64,000 nt of DNA from a virus. The notes under the pieces are model-generated. The model saw only the letters and a program-made list of their open reading frames with translations. It had not been told where the DNA came from and searched no databases. The position numbers and the translations under genes were made by a program. Each line of letters starts with the position of its first letter. The stretch's first letter is position 1. Positions 40,215-64,000 of the stretch are shown here, one piece after another. The stretch is from IMG/VR virus record IMGVR_UViG_3300042484_001802. One strand, 5' to 3'.

Positions 40215-41641
40215 ACCATAAATTAGGTATTTGTGTACCCTATAGAAATAGAAAAGAACACCTTGATAGATTAATCCCACATTTATCTAAACATTTAGAT
40301 TCCCAAGGAATTGATTATAAATTTTATGTTGCACATCAAGTAGATGACAAACTTTTTAACAGAGGTGCAATGAAAAATATTGCAGCTAAACACGCATTAG
40401 AAGATGGTTGTGATTATATTGCTTGGCACGACGTGGATATGTTGACGTTTGAAGATAGTGATTATTCATATCCAGAAGAAACTCCGATTCATATTGCAAC
40501 TATGTTGTCAAAATACAATTATGGTATAAACTATGATCAATACTTTGGCGGAGTAGTGTTGTTTAATAAAGAACATTTAGAAAAAACAAATGGGTACTCA
40601 AACGACTATTGGGATTGGGGTATGGAAGACGATGATTTGTTTTGGAGATGTTATTATGAAAATTATACAACAGGAAAAATAAAACGTTCATATACCAATA
40701 AACAATACGCGGAATTTAATGGCGTTACATCTAAAATAGAAATACCAAGTACTAGGGAATTAGTTAATTTATTACATAATGACCACACAATTTCTATTTT
40801 ATTTAATGCGGAACAACAACAAGAAAAGGTTCCAATTTGGATGATTGGTGATGAACAAAAACGCTTCATTGAATACCCCATATTTAGAAAAACCGGAGGG
40901 TATAATTACGGTTTATCTTTTAATAATTCTAGGGCAGTTACAATGTGTTTGTTTAACGAAAGAAGACAAACAATCTACAATTGGCTGAAAAGATTTGAAA
41001 ACATGTGGACGTGGGTTACACTAACATATAATAAAGAAGAGGAACGAATATTCTTTTATCTAAATGATGAATTTGGTCGGAATATGAATGGAATCAAAGA
41101 AGACGCTTATTTCCCAGCGTTTGGTAAACTTCTTAGGTACAATACAACAACTCCATTTTATTTAGGACACGATTCAGACATGAACACATTCTTTAAGGGT
41201 AAAATAGCCGAAATTAAGATATATGACAAGTTTTTTCCACACGTTGATATCGGTCAAGTGTTTGATACTGAGAAAGATGGGTTAATTTTACATCACGATT
41301 TCTCAAATAGAGAAAATAATGTTATATTTGATAATGTGGATGCTCACGAATGTATTGGAACCGATATTGTTTATGGTTCAGAGGATGTTGATGTGATTGA
41401 AAACGTAGTACCATTTAGACGAGAGGGTAAATTTTATTGTTTACCACACGTAGATGAAGGGTTTGTTGGTGGAAGATGGGCTAAGGGTGAAACCACAGCT
41501 AAAAACGAAAAAAGATTTGTTACAGAAATGCAACAGAAAAAAATAAATTACAAAGACGATGGGTTGTCAACATTAAAATATGAATTGGTTAGCGTTGAAA
41601 ACTATAGTAACAAATGTGTAATGATAAACACAAAATTATAA
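40211..41641 (+). CDS. Second GT7 with an inserted LamG-like domain
   Basis: VPYRNR, FNRGAMKN, WHDVD, YFGGV, NGYSNDYWDWGMEDDD; insert EFNG...WVTLTY...FKGKIAEIKIYD; C-terminal DGLSTLKY. Confidence 0.85.
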   Translation: MNHKLGICVPYRNRKEHLDRLIPHLSKHLDSQGIDYKFYVAHQVDDKLFNRGAMKNIAAKHALEDGCDYIAWHDVDMLTFEDSDYSYPEETPIHIATMLSKYNYGINYDQYFGGVVLFNKEHLEKTNGYSNDYWDWGMEDDDLFWRCYYENYTTGKIKRSYTNKQYAEFNGVTSKIEIPSTRELVNLLHNDHTISILFNAEQQQEKVPIWMIGDEQKRFIEYPIFRKTGGYNYGLSFNNSRAVTMCLFNERRQTIYNWLKRFENMWTWVTLTYNKEEERIFFYLNDEFGRNMNGIKEDAYFPAFGKLLRYNTTTPFYLGHDSDMNTFFKGKIAEIKIYDKFFPHVDIGQVFDTEKDGLILHHDFSNRENNVIFDNVDAHECIGTDIVYGSEDVDVIENVVPFRREGKFYCLPHVDEGFVGGRWAKGETTAKNEKRFVTEMQQKKINYKDDGLSTLKYELVSVENYSNKCVMINTKL

Positions 41642-43806: not shown

Positions 43807-44436
43807 ATGATTAAGAATTTAGAACAATACGAAATTGTTAAAGATCCACAATACACCAAAGAAGATTTGGTTAATTTTGAAACCTTAATTAGCGAACACT
43901 GGGAAGGTGGTAAGATTAGAGGACCAGTGCATTTATCTGACGGTAATGAAGAACCGTTAATTGAAATTTTTAAAAGAGTAAAAAAAACCGATTGGGTATT
44001 TTCAACTTGGCGCTCACACTACCACGCATTACTCAAAGGTATTTCTCCGGTTTGGTTAGAAGAAGAAATCTTGGCCGGTAAGTCAATTACCATCTGTAAC
44101 ATACCAGAAAGATTCTACGCGTCAGCAATCGTTGGTGGAATACTACCAATTGCTTTAGGTGTTGCAAAAGGAATTAAAATGAGTGGTGGAGATGAAAAAG
44201 TGTGGTGTTGTATTGGTGATATGACATTTGAAAGCGGATTATTCTATGAAGTACACAAATACGCTAGACGCTTTGATTTACCATTACATTTTATTGTTGA
44301 GGATAACGATAAATCGACCAACACACCAACATTGGCTGCTTGGAAAGAAAAGCGTGAACTACCAGACGATGTAATATACTACAAATACGAATCAAAATAC
44401 CCTCACTATGGAACTGGAAAGTGGATTAACTTTTAA
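43807..44436 (+). CDS. TPP-dependent dehydrogenase E1 alpha-like subunit (short)
   Basis: GPVHLSDGNE, STWRSHYH, SAIVGG, GDMTFESG...EDN TPP-binding motif. Confidence 0.85.
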   Translation: MIKNLEQYEIVKDPQYTKEDLVNFETLISEHWEGGKIRGPVHLSDGNEEPLIEIFKRVKKTDWVFSTWRSHYHALLKGISPVWLEEEILAGKSITICNIPERFYASAIVGGILPIALGVAKGIKMSGGDEKVWCCIGDMTFESGLFYEVHKYARRFDLPLHFIVEDNDKSTNTPTLAAWKEKRELPDDVIYYKYESKYPHYGTGKWINF

Positions 44437-45799
44437 AATAGCTTACGACTATTGGAATCCAATTACAAATATGCCCTTCCCTAACGGATGGGCAAAATTT
44501 TTAAGAGAGGATTTTATTGAGAACGGCAAACACAATCCACAACATCACTATTCATCTACACATAGCGAACTTAACAATCAGTTTAAGTATAGAAATAGAG
44601 AAGACGTTGGTGGAATTCACATCATAACCGAAAAATATGATGAGGATATCACCTATTTCTATTTACTAGAAGGTGTGGGATGTGATTTCCGCCTTTTCAT
44701 GGACATTAGTCAGGATAATCGATATAGCACACTCCTTATTAAAAATATGAGCGCTAAGGCGCTTAAAATGGCTCAGGATGGACAGTTAAAAATTGTTATT
44801 AACTATTCACACGAACCCATAGGTGATGATTTGTTATTTGACCTAATTGGTGAGTTTTGTTCTAAAAATGGAATACCAGAAAAAAATATTATGTTTTTCA
44901 CTGGGTGTATGAATATCAATCATTTGTGTCAACAAAGTTTATCAAAATATAAGTTTAAAGTTTACACGGATAATGTTGTTATGTCAACTTCTGGACAATC
45001 ACTTAGGAATCTGATGGATGGTGGAAAACATAACGAATTAAACTATGAAACGACCTTAATAACGGAATCTGAAATTGAAACAGACGTTAGAGATAAACAT
45101 TTTATTTGTTTAAATAGAAATAGCCATAAAGGACATCGATTAAATCTTGGATTGTTTGTTGAAAGTGAAAATCTATGGGATAAATTCTATATTAGTTTTT
45201 TAGAGGATCTTAAATCACATGATAGAATCCATAACACCACACACGGGTTTAGAAATATGGAGTTTAGAAATCAATTACTAGACGCATTACCTGATTTTAT
45301 AAAAAAAACACCGTTAGAACTTGATACACAATCACTTAACGATGAACAAAGAATGTGTTTTAGTGTTGTGAGAGCGTATCGTAAAGATTTATATCTGAAC
45401 AGTTACATTTACGTGGTTACAGAAACCAAATTTGATAAACATATCTATTTTTCAGAGAAAATCTGTAATCCAATGATAGTTCTACAACCGTTCATTGTAT
45501 TTGGTGCAGCACACTTCTTAAAATACCTTAAAAAACTTGGATTCAAAACATTTAGTCCGTTTATTGATGAGACATATGATGATGAAGAAAATGATGAAAA
45601 AAGATTGATATTACTATGTAATTTAATCAAAAAATTAAGTAAATTGGGTAGGTTAGAAATACATGAATGGTATAACTCTATCAAGGACATATTAGTCCAC
45701 AATAGAAACTTACTTTATCAAATGTCGTTCAATAATAATTTCGAAAACAGGTTTATAGAAACTTTAAATTATGAAAAAAATATTAATAACAGGGTGTAA
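44408..45799 (+). CDS. Putative GT-B glycosyltransferase (GT10-like [ST]EK motif), paralogue A
   Basis: FICLNR...HR, VVTET...FSEKICNP...QPFIVFG...LKKLGFKTF...IDETYD. Confidence 0.5.
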   Translation: MELESGLTFKIAYDYWNPITNMPFPNGWAKFLREDFIENGKHNPQHHYSSTHSELNNQFKYRNREDVGGIHIITEKYDEDITYFYLLEGVGCDFRLFMDISQDNRYSTLLIKNMSAKALKMAQDGQLKIVINYSHEPIGDDLLFDLIGEFCSKNGIPEKNIMFFTGCMNINHLCQQSLSKYKFKVYTDNVVMSTSGQSLRNLMDGGKHNELNYETTLITESEIETDVRDKHFICLNRNSHKGHRLNLGLFVESENLWDKFYISFLEDLKSHDRIHNTTHGFRNMEFRNQLLDALPDFIKKTPLELDTQSLNDEQRMCFSVVRAYRKDLYLNSYIYVVTETKFDKHIYFSEKICNPMIVLQPFIVFGAAHFLKYLKKLGFKTFSPFIDETYDDEENDEKRLILLCNLIKKLSKLGRLEIHEWYNSIKDILVHNRNLLYQMSFNNNFENRFIETLNYEKNINNRV

Positions 45800-50675: not shown

Positions 50676-51193
50676 CCTACAAAGACGAATTAACTAGAGC
50701 CATGACATATATTGGAGAACAAGAAAATAGTGTCTTCATGGGACAATCTGTGGCTTTCCCTGGAACATCATTGTATGGTACATTAACAAATGTATCTAAA
50801 GATAAATTAATTGAATTTCCGGTATTGGAAGAAACCCAAACAGGCGTTGCGTTAGGGATGAGTTTAACCGATAAGTGTGTTGTGTCAATTTACCCAAGAT
50901 GGGACTTTTTAATATTGGCGACTAATCAATTGGTGAATCACATAGATAAGTTTGAATTGATGACAGGACACGCACCACACGTAATCATTAGAGTTGGTGT
51001 TGGTAGCACAAACCCATTGGACCCCGGACATCAACATAAAGCAGATTATACAGAAGCATTTAAATTATTAATGCAACAAGTTGAGGTTATAAATTTAACT
51101 GAAGCAAATCAAGTTTTCGATACATATAAAAGGGCGTATGATAACAAAAAACCAATAATCATTTGTGAATACCCCGACCTATACAATGCATAG
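50672..51193 (+). CDS. TPP-dependent E1 beta/transketolase pyrimidine-binding domain (no C-terminal domain)
   Basis: MGQSV, EFPVLEETQTGVALG, NQLVN, GHQH. Confidence 0.85.
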   Translation: MTYKDELTRAMTYIGEQENSVFMGQSVAFPGTSLYGTLTNVSKDKLIEFPVLEETQTGVALGMSLTDKCVVSIYPRWDFLILATNQLVNHIDKFELMTGHAPHVIIRVGVGSTNPLDPGHQHKADYTEAFKLLMQQVEVINLTEANQVFDTYKRAYDNKKPIIICEYPDLYNA

Positions 51194-52547
51194 ACCAACT
51201 TTTGGATACGATATAATAACACCTAGGGGTGAATTACCTAATGGATTAGATCCTGCTAGATTTAAATTCATTTATGACCAAGTTAAATGGAACTTTAGGG
51301 AGATATTGTATTTTAATAGTTTAGATACTAATCCAGTTTATTTAGCTGGGCACTTTGACCACAAAATAATTAAAAAAAGTGTTTATGAAATCCACAAAAA
51401 TAGACAACAAGGTATAAACGAAGTATGGTATTATACAATAGAACCATTTGGTAATTTCAGGGGATTTTTGGGTCTGTTAAATGGTAAAGTGGATGATGAA
51501 TTCACTATACATATGTCAGATATTGCAAAACACGAAATAATCTCAGGGAACGGTCGTTTATTGATCAATTACACTATTGATGGGGGTATCGATGTTAATA
51601 GAAACACAATAACTAAATTGTTTGAACTTTTAAAAGCAACAAACATCCCATTTCGTAAGATTTACTTTCTTATGAATGATATTAATTTTAAAGGTAATCT
51701 TGAAAAAATTAGTGGGATTCAAAATTTAAATGTGTTTCATTTTAATTTAGCGTTGATGCAAAAGTCAAATGAAATATATAATACATTATTACATGAAGGT
51801 CGTTATTTCTTTTGGAAAAATAATACTTCATTTGTTTCCAAAGTTACACGTATTGAAGATTTCGAATTAAATTTAACCAAAAAGGATAAGAAATTTTTGA
51901 TGTTAAATCGTAACTGGAAGATGCATAGATTGGAGTTAATTAAAACACTCAGGGATAACGGTTTATTGGAAGATTCATTGGTATCGTGGGATAAGAATAT
52001 GGTTAGCCACAGCGAAGCAAGAGCATTTATTGAAAAATATGACGATGCTGAGTTAATGGAAATCATGAAGAACGAATCATCGATTTTAGATTATCCAGAT
52101 ATCGCAAATGTTCATGGTTATGGTTTTGAAACAAAAGAAATATACTTACAAAGTTTTTTTCATATTGTTGGTGAAACTATTTATTATCAAGATGACACAC
52201 CATCTGGATACGTTTCAGAAAAACCGTTTAAACCAATGGCACACTTTCAACCATTTATATTTGCGGGACCGGCCGGTGTTATTAAACATTTGAATGAATT
52301 AGGATTTAAATCTTTTCACCCATATATTGATGAAACATATGATTCGATTACGGATGATAATGAGAGAATGAAAGCAATTTGTAACGAAGTCATTCGTCTA
52401 GGTAAACTAACTAAAGATGAAATGATTGATATTACGATGAAATTAAAAAGTGTTTTATACCACAACTATAGGATGCTATTTAATATTGGCTCACCAAAGC
52501 TCCAAGACGATAATAGAAATAACGTAATTGAATTTTTAAATAAATAA
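51186..52547 (+). CDS. Putative GT10-like glycosyltransferase, paralogue B
   Basis: FLMLNR...HR, IVGET...YVSEKPFKP...QPFIFAG...LGFKSF...IDETYD. Confidence 0.5.
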   Translation: MHRPTFGYDIITPRGELPNGLDPARFKFIYDQVKWNFREILYFNSLDTNPVYLAGHFDHKIIKKSVYEIHKNRQQGINEVWYYTIEPFGNFRGFLGLLNGKVDDEFTIHMSDIAKHEIISGNGRLLINYTIDGGIDVNRNTITKLFELLKATNIPFRKIYFLMNDINFKGNLEKISGIQNLNVFHFNLALMQKSNEIYNTLLHEGRYFFWKNNTSFVSKVTRIEDFELNLTKKDKKFLMLNRNWKMHRLELIKTLRDNGLLEDSLVSWDKNMVSHSEARAFIEKYDDAELMEIMKNESSILDYPDIANVHGYGFETKEIYLQSFFHIVGETIYYQDDTPSGYVSEKPFKPMAHFQPFIFAGPAGVIKHLNELGFKSFHPYIDETYDSITDDNERMKAICNEVIRLGKLTKDEMIDITMKLKSVLYHNYRMLFNIGSPKLQDDNRNNVIEFLNK

Positions 52548-54226
52548 TGAGTTATATAATTGGGATATCGGCATACTATCACGATTCTTCAGCTTGTTTG
52601 TTGAAGGATGGCGAATTGTTGTTTGCGTGTGAAGAAGAAAAATTCACAGGCATAAAACATGATAGTTCATTCCCAAATAAAACTATTGAATATATCTTTA
52701 AAAAGTATAATTTAACTAAAAAAGATATTGAGGCAGTATGTTATTATGAAGATTTAGATTTAAAATTACAAAGAGTTATTAATAACTCAAAAAAAGTTTT
52801 CCTTAAGGCACCAATATATGCTATTAAGAATGTATATAATGTTTTAAAAAACAAAAAAGATGTTAAGAAGAATTTAGCAAAAATATCTGATAAGGTTTTC
52901 TACTCTAAACATCACGACTCACATACATACTATTCATTTTATACATCACCATTTAATGACGCTGTTGTTTTATCGGTTGATGGTGTTGGTGAAAGTGAAA
53001 CAATACAAATTGCCACCATCTATAATAATAAGTTATATCAAATACCACACACAGAATACCCAAACTCATTAGGGTTATTTTATTCTGCTATGACATCTTT
53101 CTTAGGGTTTAAACCCAATGAAGGTGAATATAAAGTAATGGGTTTGGCATCTTATGGAAACCCTAAAAAATATAGACAAAAAATAGATTCATTAATTTCG
53201 TACAAACAAGGGTTTTTAACTTGCAATATGGATTGTTTTGTTTGGGATAGAAGTGACAAGGTTATGTTTAATCATAACCTATCAAAAAAATTAGGGATTG
53301 AAAATAGATTACCAGATGAAAAACTAACAGTACAACATCACGATTTAGCGGCCGCGGTTCAAGAAACCTACGAAGTTATTTTAAGTAAAATACTAGAAGA
53401 GATATCAATATTAACTAACACTAGAAATTTATGTCTTAGCGGTGGCTGTGCTTACAACGGATCAGCAAATGGAAAGTTAACAAATAACGGTTGGTTTAAA
53501 AATTTATGGATACCTCCAGCACCATCTGATGCAGGATCGGCTATTGGTGCGTGTTTAAATTATCTGGACACTAATAATAAACTAACAAAAAAGATTGACA
53601 CAACACCGTTCTTAGGCCCAGAATACACTAATGAGGAATACTTGTCGGTTATCGATGAAGAAATAGTGAGATACAGTGAAATAAGTAGAGAAAAACTATT
53701 AAAATTAATTTCTACCGAATTATATAATGGCAAAGTTGTTGGATGGTTCCAGGGTAAAATTGAATTTGGTTCTAGAGCATTGGGTAACAGGTCGATACTA
53801 GCAAATCCAATGATAATTGGTATGCAAAAGAAGATTAATCGTGTTATAAAGAAGCGAGAACTTTTTAGACCATTTGCACCTATGGTGACAAAAGAAAATC
53901 AAACAAAATATTTTCTATATGACAAGGACGTGCCATATATGAATCAAGTTGTTAAGGTTAAAAAGGAATACGTTGGTAAGTTAATCGCAACAACTCACGT
54001 TGACGACACAGCTAGAATTCAAACAGTTACAAGTGAAAATAACGTATATGACTTATTAATTGAATTTGAAAAGATTAGTGGTGTATCAGTATTATTGAAC
54101 ACATCATTTAACGTTAAAGATAAAACAATGGTGTTAACACCACAAGATGCTATGGATACTTTTTTAGACACGGAAATGGATGTCTTAGTATTAGGTAATA
54201 ATGTAATTTATAAAAAAACAATATGA
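52547..54226 (+). CDS. Carbamoyltransferase (NodU/CmcH/TobZ family)
   Basis: YHDSSA, EEEKF..IKH, HHDSH, DGVGE, GEYKVMGLASYG, GGCAYN, EFGSRALGNRSIL, FRPFAP, LLNTSFN. Confidence 0.95.
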   Translation: MSYIIGISAYYHDSSACLLKDGELLFACEEEKFTGIKHDSSFPNKTIEYIFKKYNLTKKDIEAVCYYEDLDLKLQRVINNSKKVFLKAPIYAIKNVYNVLKNKKDVKKNLAKISDKVFYSKHHDSHTYYSFYTSPFNDAVVLSVDGVGESETIQIATIYNNKLYQIPHTEYPNSLGLFYSAMTSFLGFKPNEGEYKVMGLASYGNPKKYRQKIDSLISYKQGFLTCNMDCFVWDRSDKVMFNHNLSKKLGIENRLPDEKLTVQHHDLAAAVQETYEVILSKILEEISILTNTRNLCLSGGCAYNGSANGKLTNNGWFKNLWIPPAPSDAGSAIGACLNYLDTNNKLTKKIDTTPFLGPEYTNEEYLSVIDEEIVRYSEISREKLLKLISTELYNGKVVGWFQGKIEFGSRALGNRSILANPMIIGMQKKINRVIKKRELFRPFAPMVTKENQTKYFLYDKDVPYMNQVVKVKKEYVGKLIATTHVDDTARIQTVTSENNVYDLLIEFEKISGVSVLLNTSFNVKDKTMVLTPQDAMDTFLDTEMDVLVLGNNVIYKKTI

Positions 54227-54339
54227 AAAAATTAATTAAATGGTTCTTAGATAAGATTGAAAGAATCAAAAGAGATCGTAAACTTAAAAAGAAAATTGCT
54301 GAGTTAAAGAAGAGAGACCCATTCATTTATAAACACTAA
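54223..54339 (+). CDS. Small basic protein ending KKRDPFIYKH (38 aa)
   Basis: ATGA overlap with the carbamoyltransferase stop; MKKLIKWFLDKIERIKRDRKLKKKIAELKKRDPFIYKH. Confidence 0.65.
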   Translation: MKKLIKWFLDKIERIKRDRKLKKKIAELKKRDPFIYKH

Positions 54340-55472: not shown

Positions 55473-55504
55473 GTTTTTTGATTTTTTTTAGTTATATTAG
55501 TAAT

Positions 55505-55939
55505 ATGATATACTGGTTAACAGGCCAACCTGGCGCAGGAAAAACAACCTTAGCAAAATACTTAGTGGAATACTTTCCGAAAGATGAGGTTACTCACATC
55601 GATGGAGATGACTTAAGGGACATCTTTAAAAACAAGGACTATTCCATAACAGGTAGAAGATTAAACATCCAAAGAGCACAATACATTGCACAATTCATGC
55701 ATAGTAAGGGACATAATGTTATTGTGTCCTTAGTTTCACCATATCGAGACCAAAGAGAAGAATTTAAATTTAGCACATCGGTTGTTGAGATTTATGTACA
55801 CACCACAGAAGATAGAGGTAGGAACCAATTTCATGTTGAGGAATATGAACCACCATTAGAAAATTTTATAGACATAGATACAACAATAAAAAACGAAACA
55901 GATTCGTATTTTGAACTATTAAAAAAATTATCATTATGA
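55505..55939 (+). CDS. cysC: Adenylyl-sulfate (APS) kinase
   Basis: WLTGQPGAGKTT, IDGDDLR, VSLVSPY, YEPP; likely start is ATG 55505. Confidence 0.85.
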   Translation: MIYWLTGQPGAGKTTLAKYLVEYFPKDEVTHIDGDDLRDIFKNKDYSITGRRLNIQRAQYIAQFMHSKGHNVIVSLVSPYRDQREEFKFSTSVVEIYVHTTEDRGRNQFHVEEYEPPLENFIDIDTTIKNETDSYFELLKKLSL

Positions 55940-56451
55940 TGACAAATGGTATTATCATTGACAATTTTTTAGACAATGTTGATGAAATAAGAGAGGAAGC
56001 GTTGTTATTAGATTATACTAAATCATTACCCGAAAGTGAAGGTTGGAAAGGGTTTAGGTGTTTAAATGGAAACATGTTGACACTTGATTTACATGAAAAA
56101 ATTAAAGAAAAGTTAGTTGAAACTAATATAAAATTTGATAATTGTGATATGAGGTGTTTTTTTCATTATACATTGGAAGAACATAATGTAGGTAAAAAAA
56201 ACACACATCGTGATTATGGTTTTGATTATGCTGGGGTTTTATACCTAGCACCAAACCCACAAAAAAATTCAGGTACGTCTTTTTATAATGATTTAGGTGA
56301 AGAAACCGGTTACTTGGAAAACGTTTATAATAGATTAGTAATTTATCCAGCGAATGAGTTACACTCTTTAAAAGAATCTTTTGGTAACGATATTAATAAT
56401 GGTAGATTAACTTTCACGTTTTTTTGTAAATTAAAAAATAACAATATATGA
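55936..56451 (+). CDS. 2OG-Fe(II) oxygenase-like (DUF6445-like)
   Basis: IIDNFL, HRD, AGVLYL, GTSFY, NRLVIY...LH, RLT..FF. Confidence 0.75.
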   Translation: MMTNGIIIDNFLDNVDEIREEALLLDYTKSLPESEGWKGFRCLNGNMLTLDLHEKIKEKLVETNIKFDNCDMRCFFHYTLEEHNVGKKNTHRDYGFDYAGVLYLAPNPQKNSGTSFYNDLGEETGYLENVYNRLVIYPANELHSLKESFGNDINNGRLTFTFFCKLKNNNI

Positions 56452-56828
56452 GTAAGAAATATGCAATGTACATCGGTAGGTGGCAAAATTGGCATAAAGG
56501 TCACGAATGGTTGATCCGTCAACAAATGGACCAAGGTAAGAACATATGGGTAGCTATTAGGGATGTTGAAGTTGACGAGAACAACCCTAAAACAGCTCAA
56601 GAGGTTTTTCAAATGTTAATCCAGGAGCCCTTTTTTAACGAGAATTTTGATAAGATTTTACTATCAATTATCCCAGATATTGAATCGGTTAATTATGGTA
56701 GAGGTGTTGGTTACGATGTTATTTATCACGAGCCACCGGCGGATGTTGCGGTAATAAGCGGAACTGCTATTAGAACTGGACATATGACCGCTGATGGCTC
56801 AATAAAATATGACCAAACAAAAGGATAA
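56448..56828 (+). CDS. Minimal HxGH nucleotidyltransferase (cytidylyltransferase/ATP-sulfurylase-like)
   Basis: IGRWQNWHKGH, YGRGVGY, ISGTAIR. Confidence 0.75.
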   Translation: MSKKYAMYIGRWQNWHKGHEWLIRQQMDQGKNIWVAIRDVEVDENNPKTAQEVFQMLIQEPFFNENFDKILLSIIPDIESVNYGRGVGYDVIYHEPPADVAVISGTAIRTGHMTADGSIKYDQTKG

Positions 56829-57043
56829 TGATTGTAGAACGTAAACGACATATAGCCAAAACAATATCCTATCGTATTATAAGCACTATAATAGGTTTCC
56901 TTATAATGTGGTGGGTTAGTGGATCTATTAAGATTGGTGCAACCTTTGGTGTGGCTGAATTAGTATACAAACCTATTCAATATTACCTACATGAAAGGAT
57001 TTGGTATAGATGGATAAAGTTCGGGGTAAAAGATAAAAAATAA
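56828..57043 (+). CDS. DUF2061-like small membrane protein
   Basis: RHIAKTISYRII...YYLHERIW. Confidence 0.8.
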   Translation: MIVERKRHIAKTISYRIISTIIGFLIMWWVSGSIKIGATFGVAELVYKPIQYYLHERIWYRWIKFGVKDKK

Positions 57044-57067
57044 GTATTTATATATAAATTAGAAAAT

Positions 57068-58555
57068 ATGAGAACAGTATTGATAGGATCAGATTTTATG
57101 TACGATAAGGATGGTAATTTAAGACCCATTGAAATAAACACTGCGGTTGGTTGGGATGGTCCCGAAAAAGTCGAGGAAGATGTTGATTGTTTGGATTTAA
57201 CAAATTTATATCAATTTGTTGAGGATAATAATTTCCAAACGATACATTATGTTGGTGATATTGGTCCATTACACGTGACATTAATGACACATTATAGCGG
57301 AAGTTCTGTTACATATGAATTTCACGGGGTTGGTGCAACTTCCATTACAGTTCCATACATAGAAGATACTGAAACGACTTTAATTATTAGGAGTGCATAT
57401 GACACAACAGCACTAGTGGATGACACATATTGTAAGGATAAAATAGAGTTCATGAATCTAATTAAAGATTCTTCTTTTGGCTCCCAATTTGCGTACATTG
57501 ACGAAAATAACACATTGGTGTCAAATATCACATCTATAAATGATAACGGCGAACACCCTAATTTTATTTTAAAATCTAGATTTCCAGGTTATGACAAGTT
57601 AATTTATCCAAAATTTTTTAAAGTTACAACTCAATCTGAATTAGACACTATAATAGCAAATAATGTTACAAGTGAGTATTTTTTAATGGAGTACCTATGT
57701 AACGTCAATAAACTATGGGAAGGGCATTTAACGGTGATAAGAAGTTTAAACATTTTAGTCCCACCAAATTTAGAATCAATTCAAATTGGCCAATATACAA
57801 AATTGAATCAAAATATGTTACTAGATAATGTGACATATGATTCAATCACATTTGAAGTATATTCAGATTTCAAAGAGAGTTATAGTACAAACCCACCTAC
57901 CGGTTTTCAACCTAAATTATTGAATACTGATATGGTAGAAATGGCAGATGGGACATTAAAAACTGCATTGGATTTACAAATTGGGGACGTTATTAAAACA
58001 ATTGAAATACCAAATGAAAAGGGAACTAGTATAGATAGTTACGTATCCTCCGAATTTGGGCTTACGTACGATACGTTGGTAAGTGATGCAATATATACAA
58101 CTAATGTCGTAACCAAAAAACAAAAAGTAAACACCTTAACTTTTATAAATGAATTAACATTTGAAGATGCTAGTACCTGGGAAGATACTATGGGCTCAAA
58201 GTATTTGATAGACAGAGAAGGTGTGGTTATGTTTAAATCATTATGGGGGATATTTCCAGGAGATGTGGTTATATTATTAGATACTACTGATGATAATATA
58301 AATTTTGTAAGAAAAACAGTTACATCAAATATTCAAGTTAAGAGAGTGTTCTCTGGTTGGTTTATTTCAGTTGATACCGCTATGTTATTTTTAACTAAAA
58401 CAGCCGGGTCAACCAATAACGAATCATATGTTTCAATTGAACATAACCTTATATCTTGTCCCAATTGGACATGTACAAACGCTTGCTGGTCCATCTGTCC
58501 ATCATGTCCGAAGTATATGTCTTGTCAATCTAATTACTGTTTTCCAGTATGTTAA
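57068..58555 (+). CDS. Circularly permuted ATP-grasp-like domain + Hint domain + C-terminal Cys-rich peptide
   Basis: N-terminal GSDFMYDKDGNLRPIEINT (D...ExN), DK, ILKSR, LMEY; Hint block A-like VEMADGTLKTALDLQIGDVI (about aa 283); terminal IEHN (aa 460); then 35 aa with 8 Cys. Confidence 0.7.
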   Translation: MRTVLIGSDFMYDKDGNLRPIEINTAVGWDGPEKVEEDVDCLDLTNLYQFVEDNNFQTIHYVGDIGPLHVTLMTHYSGSSVTYEFHGVGATSITVPYIEDTETTLIIRSAYDTTALVDDTYCKDKIEFMNLIKDSSFGSQFAYIDENNTLVSNITSINDNGEHPNFILKSRFPGYDKLIYPKFFKVTTQSELDTIIANNVTSEYFLMEYLCNVNKLWEGHLTVIRSLNILVPPNLESIQIGQYTKLNQNMLLDNVTYDSITFEVYSDFKESYSTNPPTGFQPKLLNTDMVEMADGTLKTALDLQIGDVIKTIEIPNEKGTSIDSYVSSEFGLTYDTLVSDAIYTTNVVTKKQKVNTLTFINELTFEDASTWEDTMGSKYLIDREGVVMFKSLWGIFPGDVVILLDTTDDNINFVRKTVTSNIQVKRVFSGWFISVDTAMLFLTKTAGSTNNESYVSIEHNLISCPNWTCTNACWSICPSCPKYMSCQSNYCFPVC

Positions 58556-58584
58556 TAACCTTCTTAAATAAATTTAAATAAAAA

Positions 58585-58674
58585 ATGGCAACAATTATAT
58601 CAAATACAGACATCAATACTTTAAACACCACAATTACAACAATAGGTAGTTTAATTGTAACAGCAAACAGTTAG
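58585..58674 (+). CDS. 29-aa Thr/Ile/Asn-rich peptide
   Basis: MATIISNTDINTLNTTITTIGSLIVTANS; A-rich leader like other genes here; fills the gap between two genes. Confidence 0.55.
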   Translation: MATIISNTDINTLNTTITTIGSLIVTANS

Positions 58675-58697
58675 TATAAAATCTAATAAGTTATTTT

Positions 58698-59231
58698 ATG
58701 ATACATTTCATACCAAATATTCTTACTAAGGATGAGTGTGAATACTTAACGAATCAATTTGATTTCGAAAGAAAATATCAAATCTCGGCGGATAATGAAT
58801 ATACTGGCACCAATATATCATATGGGTTTGCCCCTTCATTTGCGTTTAATACCTATTTAAATAAATTAAAATCAAAAGTGTTAGAATATAACAATAATTT
58901 TGATGATTTATTCAATGTAAACACATTTGTTAGGGAATATATGAACACCTCAATGTTAAAAAAACATTTAGATAGAAAAGACATTAGTGTTACTATGTCT
59001 ATATGTTTAGAATCCACAATAAATAAAGAATGGCCGTTATGTGCGGAAATCGGAAATAAGGAATATTGTTTCAACACAAATATTGGTGACGGTATTTTAT
59101 TATTTGATGCGGATAAAATCACACATTGGAGGGAACCCTTAATATGTCTGGAGAAAGAAAGAGTTGTCCAATTTTTTTTACATTGGAAACCTTCTGATTA
59201 CGTCGCAAAAAAAACAAAATCATTATTATAA
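58698..59231 (+). CDS. 2OG-Fe(II) oxygenase
   Basis: LKKHLDR, GDGILL, HWRE, QFFLHW. Confidence 0.8.
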   Translation: MIHFIPNILTKDECEYLTNQFDFERKYQISADNEYTGTNISYGFAPSFAFNTYLNKLKSKVLEYNNNFDDLFNVNTFVREYMNTSMLKKHLDRKDISVTMSICLESTINKEWPLCAEIGNKEYCFNTNIGDGILLFDADKITHWREPLICLEKERVVQFFLHWKPSDYVAKKTKSLL

Positions 59232-59242
59232 AAAAATAAATT

Positions 59243-59827
59243 ATGCCATTTACATATACAATAGAGTCAACCTTTTTAACAAAAGAAGAATGTGATTTAA
59301 TATTAGATTTTTCATTAAAAGAATTAAAATTAGTACCATCGGAAATTCTTACCAATTACACCGATGGTGGCGACGTTAATACCGATATTAGAAAATCAAA
59401 TCAAGTATTTTACCCCTATTATAAAAAATTTCCATTTTTATTAGAAAAAATGAGTAAATTATTAAATCAACATATTTTTGTTAAAGGGTTCGATTTAGAT
59501 TTTAAAGAAAGTCAATTTCAGTTTACTGAGTATCATCCAGGCGGACATTTTGGCTGGCATAGAGATGCTCATGGAAAAAAAATAACGGATTATGACAGGT
59601 ATTGTTCATTAGTGATACAACTAAATGATGAGTATGGAGAGGGTGATTTACAAATAAAAGATGATCAGAATGGGACCCTAACAGTTGAAAAGGGTACAGG
59701 AAATTTGATATTATTTTTATCAAATATTGAACATAGAGTAGTGCCAGTAAAAAGTGGGATTAGATATACACTAGTTAATTGGGTGAAATTAAAACAAAAA
59801 AAAGATTATAAAAAAACACTTTTATAG
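59243..59827 (+). CDS. 2OG-Fe(II) oxygenase (PKHD/P4H-like)
   Basis: QFTEY..GGHFGWHRD, GEGDL, HRVVPV.SGIRYTLVNW. Confidence 0.9.
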   Translation: MPFTYTIESTFLTKEECDLILDFSLKELKLVPSEILTNYTDGGDVNTDIRKSNQVFYPYYKKFPFLLEKMSKLLNQHIFVKGFDLDFKESQFQFTEYHPGGHFGWHRDAHGKKITDYDRYCSLVIQLNDEYGEGDLQIKDDQNGTLTVEKGTGNLILFLSNIEHRVVPVKSGIRYTLVNWVKLKQKKDYKKTLL

Positions 59828-59828
59828 C

Positions 59829-60146
59829 ATGAAAATAAATTTTAAAGAAATATTAAATGCTTGGTATAATGTTATAAATCACACACCAGAACAAAAGGAA
59901 TTAGCAGATAAAAGATTCGCTATATGTTTAGAATGCCCCTCTAAAATAGAAATTTTAAAAGACAAGAAATGGCTTTTTAAATGTAAAGAATGTGGTTGTC
60001 CTTTAGGCGCAAAAGTTTACACTGAAACAACATACCTTACTAAAGACAAATCTTGTCCACTTGATAAATGGAAAGAAGTTGAAATGGAATTTATGAGTAA
60101 ACATAGTGACACGATTAAATATAAAACTAAAAAAACATTTCTTTAG
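59829..60146 (+). CDS. Small Cys-rich (Zn/Fe-binding) protein
   Basis: RFAICLECP...CKECGCPL..K...CPLDKW. Confidence 0.7.
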   Translation: MKINFKEILNAWYNVINHTPEQKELADKRFAICLECPSKIEILKDKKWLFKCKECGCPLGAKVYTETTYLTKDKSCPLDKWKEVEMEFMSKHSDTIKYKTKKTFL

Positions 60147-60148
60147 TT

Positions 60149-60838
60149 ATGGGTTATTTAATAAACGATGACCTTTTATGGGTGATCACCCCTAAATGTG
60201 CTAGCGACTCAATAGAAACTGCATTATTAAACTCAAGTTTAAATTTAAAAAAATATAGCGAGCACTTCGAACAACATACCCATATGCATATACCACTAAA
60301 CGAGTGCTTAACTAAGTTTGGTAAAAAAGAAACAATATGTATCACTAGAGATTGGTTTGAAAAATGGTTAAGTTCATTAAATTTTATTTGGGATTATATA
60401 GAATTATATAGTGAATATGAACCAGTATGTAAATGGGAGGACATCAATAATAATGTTATTTATGAGATATTTGATAGCGAATTTGTAAATAAACTTTACT
60501 CATTAAATCATACCTCTAATGAAGAATGTTTTTTGAAATTATTAAAAAGGAACACCGAAGATATTATAAACGTACCCAAAGAAATTTATGGAATAATAAT
60601 AACTCTAATATCTGAACGCTATTGGAAAAGTAATGTAAAATGCACATATGAATTTGATATTAAAAAATTAGACGATTTTGTTAATTTCATTGAAAATAGG
60701 TTTGGTGAAAAATTAATAATAGAAAAGAAAAACGTATCTACAAAAAGACCAAATAAATTAATAGTAAATAATGAATTAAAATCTTTTGTTTGGGAAAAAT
60801 TTGAAAAAATATTTGAAAAAAGAAATCAATTAATTTAA
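60149..60838 (+). CDS. Sulfotransferase-family-like protein
   Basis: PKCAS (5'-PSB-like) and RDWFEKWLS (3'-PB-like). Confidence 0.6.
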   Translation: MGYLINDDLLWVITPKCASDSIETALLNSSLNLKKYSEHFEQHTHMHIPLNECLTKFGKKETICITRDWFEKWLSSLNFIWDYIELYSEYEPVCKWEDINNNVIYEIFDSEFVNKLYSLNHTSNEECFLKLLKRNTEDIINVPKEIYGIIITLISERYWKSNVKCTYEFDIKKLDDFVNFIENRFGEKLIIEKKNVSTKRPNKLIVNNELKSFVWEKFEKIFEKRNQLI

Positions 60839-60839
60839 T

Positions 60840-61508
60840 ATGGCAACTATTTGGACATTTGGGGATTCATTTACTTCTGGAGACGGGTGTGTAGAAAACC
60901 TAAGAATTAGAGACGGCGATTTTAGATATTATAACGAATATAAAAAACTAGGTAGTGATATATGGCCTAATTTATTAGGTAAAACTTTAGGATATGACGT
61001 AAAAAATCTAGGAAAAAGTGGTGCAAGTAATGACTATATTTTAGATTCTATTATTGATAATTTTAACATGATAGAACCAAATGATGTGGTGATAATTGAA
61101 AAAACATTTTACCAAAGATTTGATATACCTAAATCAACGGGTGATGGGTTTCAAACAATTTACGCTGAAGGACTTTATCAACTTTCTATTGATTTAAAAA
61201 TGGAAAGATATTCTTGTGAAGATAAATTAGAAATTGAAACGGTATTAAATTATGGTGTTTTATTTTCCGACAATAAATTATTTAAAGAAAGACAAGATAA
61301 ACGATTTGAATTTATACAAGCACAATTAAATAATAAAACAGATAAAATATTAATATGGGATGTTTTAGATTTTTTAGACGGTAAAATTGAAACGATAGGT
61401 CAACACACTGAGGGTAATATAAAAGATTATCATTTTAGTTTTAATGGTCATAAAAGATTTAGCGAATTTCTATACAAAAAATTATATATTAAACCCTCAT
61501 TAGTTTAA
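60840..61508 (+). CDS. SGNH/GDSL-like hydrolase or acyltransferase
   Basis: FGDSFT, NLGKSGASN, DYHFSFNGH. Confidence 0.7.
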   Translation: MATIWTFGDSFTSGDGCVENLRIRDGDFRYYNEYKKLGSDIWPNLLGKTLGYDVKNLGKSGASNDYILDSIIDNFNMIEPNDVVIIEKTFYQRFDIPKSTGDGFQTIYAEGLYQLSIDLKMERYSCEDKLEIETVLNYGVLFSDNKLFKERQDKRFEFIQAQLNNKTDKILIWDVLDFLDGKIETIGQHTEGNIKDYHFSFNGHKRFSEFLYKKLYIKPSLV

Positions 61509-62240
61509 ATGTTAGTCGATAAAAAATTTATTTTTATAAGTTTACCAAGATGTGCATCAACATCATTTATGATTACGTGTGTTAAAAACAAAATACCAAT
61601 AGAGCATTTCAACTCAAACCATGATAATCAGTTGATTAAAATCAATGAATGGGAAAAAATGGGTAATGAAGAATTGGCAGATAGATTAGTACATGCACAC
61701 GAACCATTACATATGTTACAAGAAAAATTTGGGACGAGCAACCAAATTATTTCAATAAGACGAAATAAGTACGATAGATTTTTATCTTTATGGAAACACA
61801 TCATAGACGAATTACACAGAATTAACAAACTTGATATTGCTGACATCTTTTCAAAATTAACAACTAATGATCTGTTTGATAATATTAAACCAAATGACAT
61901 TTATAATTCGGAAAATAGAGTTAAAGTTATTGATAATTTTTTATCTAGGTTAGAAATTTCAAAAGAAGAATCTTACACTAAAAATATGTTAGATATATTG
62001 TTTATGCCAGTAGTTGAACTTACAAATAACGACCCAAATATTATCTGGTTTGATATTAACAGTTTGAGAGATTTAGAAAATTGGGTGTCAAAAAAACTAA
62101 ATAGAGATTTTAAAATGGAAAAAATAAATTCAAGTAAACATTTTAATTCAGTAATGGAGAACGATGATAATTTTAAACAGAAATATGATAATCTTTATAA
62201 AGAATTTGACCAAAGAAAAACAACTAAAACATTATTGTAA
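61509..62240 (+). CDS. Sulfotransferase-family-like protein
   Basis: FIFISLPRCASTS, RNKYDRFLSLW, INSS. Confidence 0.65.
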   Translation: MLVDKKFIFISLPRCASTSFMITCVKNKIPIEHFNSNHDNQLIKINEWEKMGNEELADRLVHAHEPLHMLQEKFGTSNQIISIRRNKYDRFLSLWKHIIDELHRINKLDIADIFSKLTTNDLFDNIKPNDIYNSENRVKVIDNFLSRLEISKEESYTKNMLDILFMPVVELTNNDPNIIWFDINSLRDLENWVSKKLNRDFKMEKINSSKHFNSVMENDDNFKQKYDNLYKEFDQRKTTKTLL

Positions 62241-63409
62241 TGGAAATTCAATTTTGGTATAGCGATATTTTACCAAATACAAATATTAGAAATTCAATCG
62301 AAAAAATAGATAGTGACATCTTATTTAAAAATATCCACACCGATAAGGTAGATGTTACAAAATTAAATTTTTTATTTTTTTTGTTAGAAACTGAATGGAC
62401 TAATTCCGATATCCCAAACATAGCGTATACTCATTCTAGTGAATTTATTGAATTACTAATTAAATTACAATCTGAAAATTTCTATTTTATGTGTAATAAT
62501 TCTGGGGAAGCCGAACTTTGGGTGGATAATTTATCCTTGAATTTTTTTAATTTGTTAAAAAAAAATAAAATTGATTTTAACAGATTAATAATTGTAAATA
62601 ACGATTCATCTAAAATTGGTATAGGTAAAACAAAATATGGGGATTTTATATTAAACACCTGTTTTTTTCCTAATTTCTTTTTATCTACCTATGAGCATTT
62701 AAAGTCATATGTAACTGAATTAAACCCTAACACCATACCTGATAAAAAATTCTTATGTTTAAATAGAAGAATGGGTTATGAAAAATATAAATTAATCGAG
62801 AGGTTATATCATATGGGGTTGTTAAATGACACCAGATTTTCTTGGGTAAAAAATAGCACGAATAAAAATCTGTTAAATAAAGAATTACTTAATGAATTAA
62901 ACATAGATGTTGATAACTTTAACCCTATTCAGTTAGAAGATGATGTAATGTATGGTGCTGATTTAGTTATGGAAAAGTATCTTTACACCATAAACCCCAA
63001 ATGGTATTATAAAAGTAAAGTTAATATTATATTGGAAACAATGCTATACCCAAATTCAATTCATCTGACAGAAAAAACCTGGAAAGCAATTTATTTAGGT
63101 GTCCCGTTTGTTATATATTCACCATCTAAACACTATCTTAAAACCTTAAGGGATATGGGATTCAAGACATTTAATTCTGTGATTAATGAGGATTATGATG
63201 AGATGCTAGGTAAAGATAAAATAACACAAGTTATAAAAAGCGCTGAAGAACTGGCTAGTATCTATGACACCCCCAAAGTATTAGATATATGTAGATTTAA
63301 CCAAGAATTATATTTTAATTTTCAACACAGAAAAAAAATATATAATGAGTTTTTTTTAAATAAAATTTGTGATGTTAAAAACTTAACAATTCCTAAAACA
63401 TTAATTTAA
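62240..63409 (+). CDS. Putative GT10-like glycosyltransferase, paralogue C
   Basis: FLCLNRR, ILET...LTEKTWKA...VPFVIY...MGFKTF...INEDYD. Confidence 0.5.
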   Translation: MEIQFWYSDILPNTNIRNSIEKIDSDILFKNIHTDKVDVTKLNFLFFLLETEWTNSDIPNIAYTHSSEFIELLIKLQSENFYFMCNNSGEAELWVDNLSLNFFNLLKKNKIDFNRLIIVNNDSSKIGIGKTKYGDFILNTCFFPNFFLSTYEHLKSYVTELNPNTIPDKKFLCLNRRMGYEKYKLIERLYHMGLLNDTRFSWVKNSTNKNLLNKELLNELNIDVDNFNPIQLEDDVMYGADLVMEKYLYTINPKWYYKSKVNIILETMLYPNSIHLTEKTWKAIYLGVPFVIYSPSKHYLKTLRDMGFKTFNSVINEDYDEMLGKDKITQVIKSAEELASIYDTPKVLDICRFNQELYFNFQHRKKIYNEFFLNKICDVKNLTIPKTLI

Positions 63410-64000
63410 ATGGGTAATAAAATTGATTTAAAAAATTATACGTGTAGTGTGCCATTTACATCATTAGAAATACATAACAATGTTTGTTTTGTGTGCTGTC
63501 CATCCTGGTTACCAAACAAAGTAGAACTTAGTGAAATTCCATTAAAAGATGTTTATAATAGCGAACCAATTATTGATATAAGAAACTCGATATTAGATGG
63601 TTCATTTAGATATTGTAGTCAAGAGCTTTGTCCTTATTTAAGTAAATTAGTGAAGTATGGTGCGGAATCTGGGCCAGTCACTTTAAAATCAAATTCAAAT
63701 GTTAATAGCCCTATTGTAAAAAATAACGCACCAGATTATTTGATGATGAATTTTGATAGAACATGTAACTACAAATGTCCATCATGTAGAGTTGATTTAA
63801 TAGTTGAAAATAGTGAGGGTATAAAACGTGTAGAAAAAACAATAGAGGAGATTGATAATCACTACTCGAAATATGTTAAAACCCTATATATTACTGGATC
63901 AGGGGATCCGTTTGTTTCTGTCGGATTCAGAAATTATCTAAGAAATTTTAACCCTAAAAAATACCCAAACTTAAATTCCATACACCTACACACAAATGCG
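63410..64000 (+). CDS. Radical SAM protein (3'-truncated by the window edge), paralogue of 54351-55472
   Basis: MGNKIDLKNYTCSVPF...VCCPSW...CSQELCP...FDRTCNYKCPSCR...ITGSGDPF; open to the window end. Confidence 0.9.
   Translation, partial: MGNKIDLKNYTCSVPFTSLEIHNNVCFVCCPSWLPNKVELSEIPLKDVYNSEPIIDIRNSILDGSFRYCSQELCPYLSKLVKYGAESGPVTLKSNSNVNSPIVKNNAPDYLMMNFDRTCNYKCPSCRVDLIVENSEGIKRVEKTIEEIDNHYSKYVKTLYITGSGDPFVSVGFRNYLRNFNPKKYPNLNSIHLHTNA

Follow-up and report, generated by a model that had tools for sequence, protein, structure and literature searches.

Does the distal end of a 64,000-nucleotide (nt) stretch of DNA from the virus record IMGVR_UViG_3300042484_001802 (hereafter the window) encode a route by which a phage makes and decorates a small peptide? 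The window is phage-like, with a GC content of about 31% and nearly all genes on the + strand, and the original prediction had placed at 57,045-64,000 a self-contained cassette for tailoring a peptide in the manner of peptides that are made on the ribosome and modified after translation (RiPPs). Every open reading frame (ORF) that it had listed is present where it had been placed, on the + strand, as are all annotated features of the block and of the three genes directly before it that are described below. From 57044 onwards, the block comprises the motif GTATTTATA, a 495-aa ORF, a 29-aa ORF (the micro-gene), two genes for 2-oxoglutarate (2OG) oxygenases, the gene of a 105-aa Cys-rich, zinc-ribbon-like protein, two sulfotransferase-like genes with a weakly SGNH-like gene between them, the gene of a 389-aa protein and the start of a radical S-adenosylmethionine (SAM) gene; the intergenic gaps across 58698-63410 measure -1 to 11 nt.

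Our tentative reading, at somewhat less than even chances, is that this block opens and makes up the first half of a conserved phage transcription unit. The unit would probably be expressed late, and its products would make a small disulfide-type peptide and decorate it. The 495-aa protein, which we call the ligase-Hint protein after its two predicted folds, would be both enzyme and precursor. Its Hint domain would cleave after Asn460 by asparagine cyclisation, freeing a 35-aa tail with eight Cys and one Lys, and its ATP-grasp domain would activate a carboxylate and form one amide bond, in which one partner would be the freed peptide, through its only Lys or the N-terminus created by cleavage, or else one of the conserved C-termini encoded next door. 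The micro-gene product and the zinc-ribbon-like protein would be fixed accessory parts. The 2OG hydroxylases, sulfotransferases, SGNH protein and radical SAM enzyme, joined in other lineages by a Trp halogenase, would be recruited through a C-terminal tag that they share, the sulfotransferases would be fed by the phage's own genes for 3'-phosphoadenosine 5'-phosphosulfate (PAPS), and the peptide, or a glycan assembled on it, would be the target that these enzymes hydroxylate, sulfate or modify in other ways.

A tagged block anchored on the ligase-Hint gene

The unit was assessed in 80 loci from viral contigs and several from other collections, with neighbouring genes scored by tblastn; 64 loci are non-redundant, and the counts of downstream genes use the 51 that have at least 7 kb downstream. 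Starting from the ligase-Hint gene, 49/51 loci have the zinc-ribbon-like gene, and in the reverse search, starting from the zinc-ribbon-like gene, 51/52 loci have a ligase-Hint gene. A sulfotransferase-like gene of any kind occurs in 40 of the 51 loci, a 2OG gene of any kind likewise in 40, and a downstream radical SAM gene in at least 24, the tblastn count being a lower bound. The original prediction had named a lack of co-occurrence between the enzymes and the ATP-grasp-Hint gene as the result that would speak against it, and no such lack is seen. The micro-gene (58585-58674, product ending ...TTIGSLIVTANS) is conserved in 61/64 non-redundant loci, where it lies 14-29 nt past the ligase-Hint stop codon; its 53 distinct sequences have the core IGxLI(V/I), a C-terminal Ser in 50 cases and Asn at -2 in 45. 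The co-occurrence of micro-gene, zinc-ribbon-like gene and enzymes, together with the tag described next, indicates that the cassette is a real unit, and the earlier idea of a conserved assembly anchored on the ATP-grasp-Hint gene thus stands.

The strongest evidence that the unit is real is the tag itself, with the consensus K-x-(T/S)-(L/I)-(L/I)-COOH, which marks the block starting directly after the ligase-Hint gene. Scored with the strict pattern K-x0-2-(T/S)-(L/I/F)-(L/I/F/V)-COOH, it is carried by 72, 65, 59, 43, 40 and 32% of the genes at positions +1 to +6 after the ligase-Hint gene; upstream the strict tag is found on at most 7% of genes, except 16% at gene -1, and on 0-5% further away. 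The tag uses codons as the interior of the genes that carry it does, its Ser is encoded by both TCN and AGT codons, and it is kept in tagged genes that have more than 40 nt to the next gene (36/233), all of which indicates that the tag is selected as protein. Its interpretation as a nucleotide initiation signal or as a by-product of ATGA overlaps is rejected for the downstream block by these codon and gap data; such overlaps do explain many looser L/I endings among the genes of the upstream island. Apart from its Lys, the tag fits the class-I PDZ-binding motif (S/T-x-hydrophobic-COOH), and it resembles the C-terminal signals of MuA type that are recognized by ClpX. In the window (58698-63409) and its continuation on the near-identical contig L010 (L010:16343-19009), eleven consecutive genes of unrelated families end in the tag.

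Contig L010 is 99% identical to the window and carries the block further. On it the radical SAM gene is complete (349 aa, ending ...NKTLI), and the block gains another sulfotransferase-like gene and another 2OG gene, each the third of its kind, as well as an SDR-like gene. All of these are tagged; an untagged SGNH-like gene and then a large gene for a glycosyltransferase (GT) 4-methyltransferase follow. With four more tagged genes past the window end, the PAPS genes upstream and a position at the distal end of an island of about 27 kb, the cassette is not self-contained within 57,045-64,000 as had been proposed.

The TATTTAT motif that had been noted at the head of the unit lies within GTATTTATA at 57044-57052, a promoter-like sequence 16 nt before the ATG at 57068. 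The window holds four copies of GTATTTATA, a number reached by 21 of 100 shuffles and hence not above chance; TATTTAT, on the other hand, is kept 17-27 nt ahead of the start of the ligase-Hint homologue in 47/59 non-redundant loci, regardless of the upstream gene. We regard GTATTTATA as a candidate late-promoter motif of this phage group. All four copies (8074, 22633, 25545 and 57044) are on the + strand, 20-70 nt before start codons, and two of them precede a 912-aa ORF at 22663 with a weak match to a structural-protein PHROG family and a 489-aa ORF at 25619 with no family match.

Among the fixed neighbours, the 105-aa zinc-ribbon-like protein (59829-60146, tagged ...TKKTFL) is DUF6171-related: R29, C36, C52, C55, C57, K62, C76 and W81 are invariant, its PDB matches are weak and to zinc ribbons only, and no similarity to LysW is detectable. 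Two other roles were considered for the micro-gene product. The ending ...IVTAN-S is like block G of inteins, and a split C-intein is rejected on the grounds that several lineages end ...THS or ...HTS and that block F is absent; a second hypervariable core peptide is unlikely, the product being far more conserved than the Cys-rich tail. One 211-kb contig (L054 and L071) carries two complete triads of ligase-Hint gene, micro-gene and zinc-ribbon-like gene, about 38 kb apart and with unrelated tails.

The ligase-Hint protein and its exchangeable C-terminus

The 495-aa protein (57068-58555) has no match in Pfam (E up to 0.1), PHROG or NCBIfam. It belongs to a sizeable family, with 767 proteins in one search, and 253 clusters at 50% identity; among 120 matches listed, identity is 60-99% and the contigs reach 335 kb. 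A structure model built on 71 diverse members (mean predicted local distance difference test score (pLDDT) 87.6, predicted template-modelling score 0.84) reveals two folded domains, and the Cys-rich tail is recognized from the sequence.

Residues 1-282 (57068-57913) are modelled as a permuted ATP-grasp amide ligase of the glutathione synthetase (GS)/glutathionylspermidine synthetase (GspS)/YgiC type; folded alone, they reach a pLDDT of 91.4. Foldseek returns GS at 5e-6 and YjfC/YgiC at 4e-5, with E values of 5e-6 to 1e-4 for the clade, and in an exhaustive VIA-align comparison 11 of the top 12 matches are members of the GS/GspS/YgiC clade or the Cp1B ligase, rank 10 being a TTLL protein. The clade matches have Z 5.6-8.1 over 184-222 residues, values that are middling, in a list that is consistent; they comprise eukaryote-type glutathione synthetases, YgiC/YjfC, glutathionylspermidine and trypanothione synthetases and Cp1B. 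Matches of the GS type begin at model residue 1 and extend to 276, while for classical ATP-grasp enzymes (RimK, LysX/ArgX, Ddl) the alignment starts only around residue 55 and runs to 280, which fits the circular permutation of glutathione synthetase (Polekhina et al. 1999, as cited in PMC2845819). This permutation would put the invariant Mg motif D9...E22-x-N24 at the extreme N-terminus; D9, E22, N24, R108, D118 and R225 are invariant in the 71 diverse members. There is also a weak local alignment of residues 10-37 to residues 286-311 of biotin carboxylase.

Judged from the model, residues 1-282 are thus a minimal permuted ATP-grasp ligase of the GS/YgiC type. The nearest folds (2hgs, 1m0w, 2io7 and 7uka) share with it the E-x-N Mg motif ahead of the ATP-binding strands, and these known enzymes acyl-phosphorylate the C-terminal carboxylate of a peptide and join it to an amine; YgiC and YjfC are described as peptide-spermidine ligases (Pederick et al. 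2023, as cited in PMC12568646). The window domain differs from GS in being only 282 residues long, without approximately the first 145 GS residues, in its low identity (8-15%) and in having no HMM (hidden Markov model) match, and it differs from all of these enzymes in being fused to a Hint domain and to its own candidate substrate.

Residues 279-460 (57902-58447) form the Hint domain, identified by structure and profile, of which only the C-terminal His459-Asn460 is kept. The best VIA-align match is the bacterial intein-like (BIL) domain BIL2 of Tetrahymena (6y75_B, Z 15.4, root-mean-square deviation 2.2 over 139 residues), followed by the NpuDnaB intein (Z 15.1), the Clostridium thermocellum BIL domain 2lwy (Z 14.4) and hedgehog 1at0 (Z 14.2), and a PDB profile search gives the KlbA intein 2jmz at 4e-7. 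In the model, K283 occupies intein position 1 and residues 458-460 the intein end. The N-terminal nucleophile of inteins is missing in the 71 members, position 1 being K (23), H (22), L (13), I (7), T (1) or Y (1) and never Cys or Ser; the column of the block-B TxxH His holds S (46), T (13), N (5), A (3), G (2) or V (1) and no His. All 71 diverse members keep the terminal His-Asn; in a set of close relatives, residue 459 is Q or L in 2/25 and Asn460 is kept in 25/25. At position +1 after this Asn, the commonest residues are A, L, P, V, F and I (50/71 members), with no Cys, Ser or Thr among them, and in the absence of such a nucleophile cleavage is expected rather than splicing. Asn cyclisation that cleaves the C-terminal junction is established chemistry of inteins and BIL domains, and the residue pattern seen here is the one expected of a Hint domain confined to that reaction, which we infer for the ligase-Hint protein.

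Behind Asn460 lies a hypervariable tail (residues 461-495; 58448-58555 with the stop codon) with eight Cys and one Lys, the latter in CPSCPK. The tails of close relatives have 23-62 residues after Asn460, and identity at non-Cys positions is 22% against 68% in the body. The proportion of non-synonymous differences (pN) in the tail is 3-4 times that of the body; the ratio of non-synonymous to synonymous rates (omega) is 0.2-1.0 in the tail against 0.08-0.3 in the body. Positive selection on the tail was considered and is not accepted, since omega is raised without clearly exceeding 1 and saturation and alignment uncertainty limit the test. In 61 non-redundant tails, the number of Cys is always even (4, 6, 8 or 10), C-x0-2-K is always present and 48 have exactly one Lys; the tails are rich in Pro, Tyr, Ser and Gly and poor in Asp (1.8%) and Glu (2.2%). 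A zinc site is disfavoured by Cys counts of 6 and 10, which fit disulfides better than Cys4 sites.

In more distant members, His-Asn is followed by domains of 150-1240 residues, or by a Cys peptide and then a second, complete Hint domain. This combination of a conserved catalytic junction with freely exchangeable cargo is the architecture of pretoxin-HINT (PT-HINT) modules of polymorphic toxins, in which a Hint domain precedes a polymorphic C-terminal module and is thought to release it (Zhang et al. 2012, PMC3482391). Like PT-HINT and BIL domains, the window domain is a Hint-fold putative autopeptidase directly before a polymorphic C-terminal module; unlike them, it has no Cys or Ser at position 1, no block-B His and no match to PF07591 (PT-HINT; Pfam search, E up to 0.1). 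It resides in a phage cytoplasmic ligase rather than in a secreted filament of the Rhs/CdiA type, and its cargo is mostly a Cys peptide of 23-62 aa without an immunity gene. PF07591 matches 3 of the 71 scanned members, probably through a second Hint domain, as all four double-Hint forms are within the scanned set. In these four (P0187; P0194, L006:10001-11959; P0213, L168:3394-5274; P0239, L169:6933-8909), a short peptide lies between two Hint domains, and the second is complete, with Cys1 and a terminal His-Asn. By analogy, this layout resembles that of engineered SICLOPPS constructs and could excise, transfer or cyclise the peptide. In three long-cargo members (L007:150-5153, L008:10001-12994 and L166:8001-9989), Ig/BACON-like C-terminal domains of 200-1240 aa are encoded directly before a tail sheath gene; a micro-gene homologue with an acidic end (...EEES or ...DSEE) lies upstream in L007 and L166 and was not found in L008.

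Peptide tailoring or surface glycan

The domain assignments of the original prediction hold for all but one of the proteins. The first 2OG-Fe(II) oxygenase (58698-59231, tagged ...KKTKSLL) matches phrog_2954 at 2.7e-20, and the second (59243-59827, tagged ...YKKTLL), of the P4H/PKHD type, matches PF13640 at 1.1e-13 (52 bits, cut-off 27), phrog_61 at 6e-30 and PiuC (9ghl) at 2.4e-6; both have the HxD...H residues. Sulfotransferase-like protein 1 (60149-60838, ending ...KRNQLI) contains PKCASDS and TRDWFEKWLS, and protein 2 (61509-62240, tagged ...TTKTLL) contains PRCASTS and RRNKYDRFLS and matches phrog_3347 at 6.6e-5. Protein 1 is similar to protein 2 (E 2e-6) and to an orthologue in L006, which itself just passes the cut-off of 22 bits for PF00685 and PF03567, scoring 23; conserved motifs are P-(K/R)-C-A-S-x-S, HxH and R-x7-S. 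On these motifs and weak HMM evidence, both are putative sulfotransferases. The protein encoded between them (60840-61508, tagged ...IKPSLV) is weakly SGNH/GDSL-like, with an FGDS block at residues 7-10 and a below-threshold match to PF13472 (4.9e-4, 21 bits against 32.9). The radical SAM protein, cut by the window end (63410-64000), has a Cys-rich N-terminal region and the motif CNYKCPSC; its orthologues match PF04055 at 29.5-34.8 bits, NF033640 (N-terminal twitch radical SAM) is matched at 1e-15 below its cut-off (57.8 against 170 bits), and no C-terminal SPASM domain was detected. The exception is the 389-aa protein (62240-63409, tagged ...IPKTLI), which had been called GT-like: it has no match among Pfam, PHROG, NCBIfam, PADLOC or PDB profiles, nor is there a Pfam match on 120 listed of its 288 homologues. 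More generally, PADLOC defence models gave nothing meaningful.

Sulfation would draw on the genes directly upstream. An APS (adenosine 5'-phosphosulfate) kinase (55478-55939, PF01583 at 2.5e-17) is followed by a 126-aa nucleotidyltransferase-like protein (56448-56828), which has the HxGH and ISGTxIR signatures (GRWQNWHKGH and ISGTAIR) and no HMM match, and whose gene is always paired with that of APS kinase in related loci; it is a candidate for a minimal ATP sulfurylase, with which the phage could supply its own PAPS. Next comes a 71-aa DUF2061-like protein (56828-57043), assigned through PF09834 matches of its orthologues and syntenic with the other two. Of the loci with enough sequence to show it, 25/44 have APS kinase ahead of the ligase-Hint gene. 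The three genes keep together in most related loci; the trio stands just upstream in about 57% of loci and is sometimes found downstream instead.

That the tagged enzymes tailor the released peptide is plausible, given their co-occurrence with the ligase-Hint gene and the shared tag. The kinds of enzyme present suit protein side chains, namely 2OG oxygenases of the P4H/PKHD type, one of the AspH type in relative L001 and a tagged Trp halogenase in L006 and L168. In the last two phages the tail has two Trp, and none is found in the tail of L169, in the visible part of which the halogenase is also missing. Pro in the tail stands at 4.2 in loci that have 2OG genes and at 2.1 in loci that do not (n = 31 and 7), a twofold difference that is uncorrected for relatedness and therefore only a hint.

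The main alternative, possible although doubtful in our view, is that the tagged enzymes and the upstream genes build a sulfated, carbamoylated or acetylated glycan on a virion protein (the collagen-like fibre or the LamG proteins) or on the host envelope. The triad would then be an independent neighbour that releases or attaches variable, virion-displayed cargo, and its adjacency would reflect a common late surface-decoration region. Much of what favours this alternative weighs at the same time against a dedicated peptide pathway. The cassette is the distal end of the island mentioned above, whose sugar-nucleotide, glycosyltransferase and carbamoyltransferase genes are typical of glycan assembly; GT7-LamG fusions and the GT4-methyltransferase are contiguous with it, and SGNH genes are present. 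The best analogues of the sulfotransferase-like proteins are carbohydrate enzymes, since phrog_3347 is a Gal-3-O-sulfotransferase family and their profile aligns best, although not significantly, with the heparan-sulfate 2-O-sulfotransferase HS2ST, which brings PRCASTS, HxH and RDxxxRxxS into register. Enzyme sets are mixed and matched between phages, as in glycan islands, and many Trp-containing tails, that of the window included, have no halogenase nearby. The link between enzymes and tail consists of co-occurrence and the shared tag. As for the ligase-Hint protein itself, no ATP-grasp or GSP_synth HMM of Pfam or NCBIfam matches the window protein or any of the 71 members, the Z-scores of the ligase domain are middling (none above 8.1), the model gives the tail a pLDDT below 50, and the block-F His of inteins is not conserved in the family, which makes the rate of Asn cyclisation uncertain. 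The copies of GTATTTATA before the ORFs at 22663 and 25619 also suit a surface-decoration region, as do the Ig/BACON-like members before the tail sheath gene, which carry the triad without the enzyme block. Yet these same members (3/3) make the enzyme block a companion of short Cys tails and not of long cargo domains, the strict tag sets in precisely at the gene that follows the ligase-Hint gene, few of the glycan-type genes upstream carrying it, and oxygenases of the P4H/PKHD and AspH types and Trp halogenases more typically work on proteins or peptides. Both readings would be accommodated by a glycopeptide that is sulfated or hydroxylated. The RiPP-like tailoring originally proposed is partly supported: the conserved unit is real, and its enzymes may act on a peptide or on a glycan. 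Were the glycan alternative correct, the locus would be an unusually rich phage island for surface-glycan sulfation, with an unexplained tag.

Quite improbable is an unmodified polymorphic effector, in which the Hint domain frees a hypervariable, disulfide-rich mini-peptide that works outside the cell once lysis has occurred, as a toxin, signal or adhesin, while the neighbouring enzymes have nothing to do with it and the ligase has some other function. A Hint domain just before a polymorphic C-terminus does match the polymorphic toxins, and the uniformly even Cys count and raised tail pN agree with such an effector; however, there is no immunity-like variable gene, both fixed neighbours being conserved and not co-varying, the protein has no secretion or trafficking domain, tail omega rarely exceeds 1, and the invariance of the ligase catalytic residues argues that ligase and cargo work together. 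Least probable is that no cleavage takes place, the Hint domain being a structural relic and the tail a metal-binding or redox module of a small-molecule ligase in the style of glutathione or peptide-polyamine synthesis: the loss of Cys1, the block-B His and the conserved block-F His and the small amides made by GS, GspS and YgiC enzymes agree with this, but His459-Asn460 is invariant in 71 diverse members, a region that is exchangeable from 23 to 1240 aa would be odd for a cofactor module, and Cys counts of 6 and 10 misfit Cys4 metal sites.

Comparable known systems and the upstream island

Several known systems resemble parts of the peptide pathway that we favour. In the borosin precursor OphMA, an enzyme domain is fused to its own C-terminal core peptide, which is later cut out; the window protein likewise combines a putative modifying enzyme and a C-terminal peptide in one polypeptide, with an ATP-grasp ligase in place of an N-methyltransferase and a built-in Hint release in place of a separate prolyl oligopeptidase. 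Cys-rich RiPPs with radical SAM enzymes (SCIFF peptides/ranthipeptides), the sulfated RaxX with RaxST and the modification repertoire of conotoxins offer further comparisons, as the window block also sets a short hypervariable Cys-rich peptide beside genes for a radical SAM enzyme, hydroxylases, sulfotransferases and, in some lineages, a halogenase; it differs in having no leader peptide of their kind, and by tblastn only 24/51 loci have the radical SAM gene. A variable core of the RiPP type is encoded, as a hypervariable tail on a conserved Cys/Lys scaffold, and its leader is a two-domain protein of 460 aa. General Pfam, NCBIfam and PHROG scans of the cassette turned up no RiPP recognition element and no leader-peptidase family; we infer that the Hint domain would replace the leader peptidase. 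Membership of the graspetides, whose cores are rich in Asp/Glu and have Thr/Ser/Lys for side-chain macrocycles, is rejected, the tails being nearly devoid of Asp and Glu and the graspetide ligase 7mgv reaching only Z 4.0 against the ligase domain. On the glycan side, the glycosylation islands of chloroviruses, of mimivirus fibrils and of mycobacteriophage virions are encoded by the virus, and the window shares with them a long run of sugar-nucleotide, glycosyltransferase and sugar-decorating genes beside fibre genes; we know of none with a ligase-Hint-peptide gene, a C-terminal tag shared by its enzymes or a phage PAPS module.

The small zinc-ribbon partner recalls the LysW/LysX (ArgX) system (3vpb, 5k2m), in which an ATP-grasp ligase has a small zinc-ribbon protein as its partner, ligation takes place at the C-terminal carboxylate of that partner, and later enzymes act on the tethered substrate. 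The pairing of ligase and zinc ribbon is common to both, and ArgX (Z 5.2) and LysX (Z 4.6) are among the structural matches of the ligase domain. However, the window zinc-ribbon protein ends in K-T-L-L, which is not acidic, the same tag is also found on enzymes, and the only acidic C-terminus in the family is that of the micro-gene product in long-tail lineages; the likeness is an analogy only. It nevertheless bears on a further proposal, which we hold to be unlikely, that the block is a phage system for ligating peptides or proteins, with the C-terminal tags and the micro-gene ending ...N-S-COOH as carboxylate substrates or docking handles of the GS/YgiC-type ligase, to be joined to the Lys or new N-terminus of the cargo. 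If so, phages would possess a carrier-protein-like (LysW-like) or ubiquitin-like tagging, with cargos ranging from Cys knots of 23 aa to Ig-like domains of 1200 aa, and the double-Hint relatives might give cyclised peptides.

Literature searches for this layout returned nothing that describes it, and the original assessment had likewise not recognized it as a described system. Neither a DNA search nor tblastn, covering the cassette, the 495-aa protein and two of its distant relatives, found a match among 50,697 phage isolate records. The locus appears to be a new combination of known kinds of parts, and could be more, given the unexplained tag and ligation step. If the peptide reading is true, large phages not yet in culture encode a self-processing pathway that yields modified peptides rich in disulfides. 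It would unite, in a combination not known so far, an amide ligase and its own substrate in one protein, a one-sided Hint domain as built-in release protease and tagged, PAPS-fed enzymes. This would represent a new way of making ribosomal natural products, possibly with a new signal for protein recruitment or ligation, and a use of Hint domains beyond splicing, hedgehog processing and toxin release. The hypervariability of the family at the very place where the product would be suggests a role in conflict between the phage and its host or environment.

The 389-aa protein also has relatives within the window. Two similar stretches found upstream by tblastn, taken as the ORFs 44408-45799 (463 aa) and 51165-52547 (460 aa), encode proteins that are 20 and 25% identical to it, and none of the three has a family match; E266 and E278-K279 are invariant in all members. 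The 389-aa protein also bears a likeness to the E...TEK motif of fucosyltransferases, which we take as a lead only.

Further upstream, the window contains SbcCD-like and sigma-factor genes, a collagen-repeat protein, LamG proteins, several radical SAM genes, a fused epimerase/dehydratase gene, a 2OG oxygenase gene and a carbamoyltransferase gene. The collagen-repeat protein (27172-30375, 1067 aa) has five collagen triple-helix stretches (PF01391, 2.6e-70), and the local GC content rises to 43% against about 31% for the window; the P4H-type 2OG and GT7 galactosyltransferase-like genes could equally serve hydroxylation and glycosylation of the collagen type. Two paralogous genes in tandem (38817-41641) each encode a GT7 (beta-1,4-galactosyltransferase-like) domain joined with a LamG/concanavalin-like one, and this pair followed by the gene of a 471-aa radical SAM protein recurs in L008 and L166. 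Finally, a 38-aa ORF (54223-54339) overlaps the stop codon of the carbamoyltransferase gene and ends ...RDPFIYKH; this end is conserved as ...RDPF(I/T)YNH in L001, L002 and L006, and tblastn finds the ORF in several other loci.

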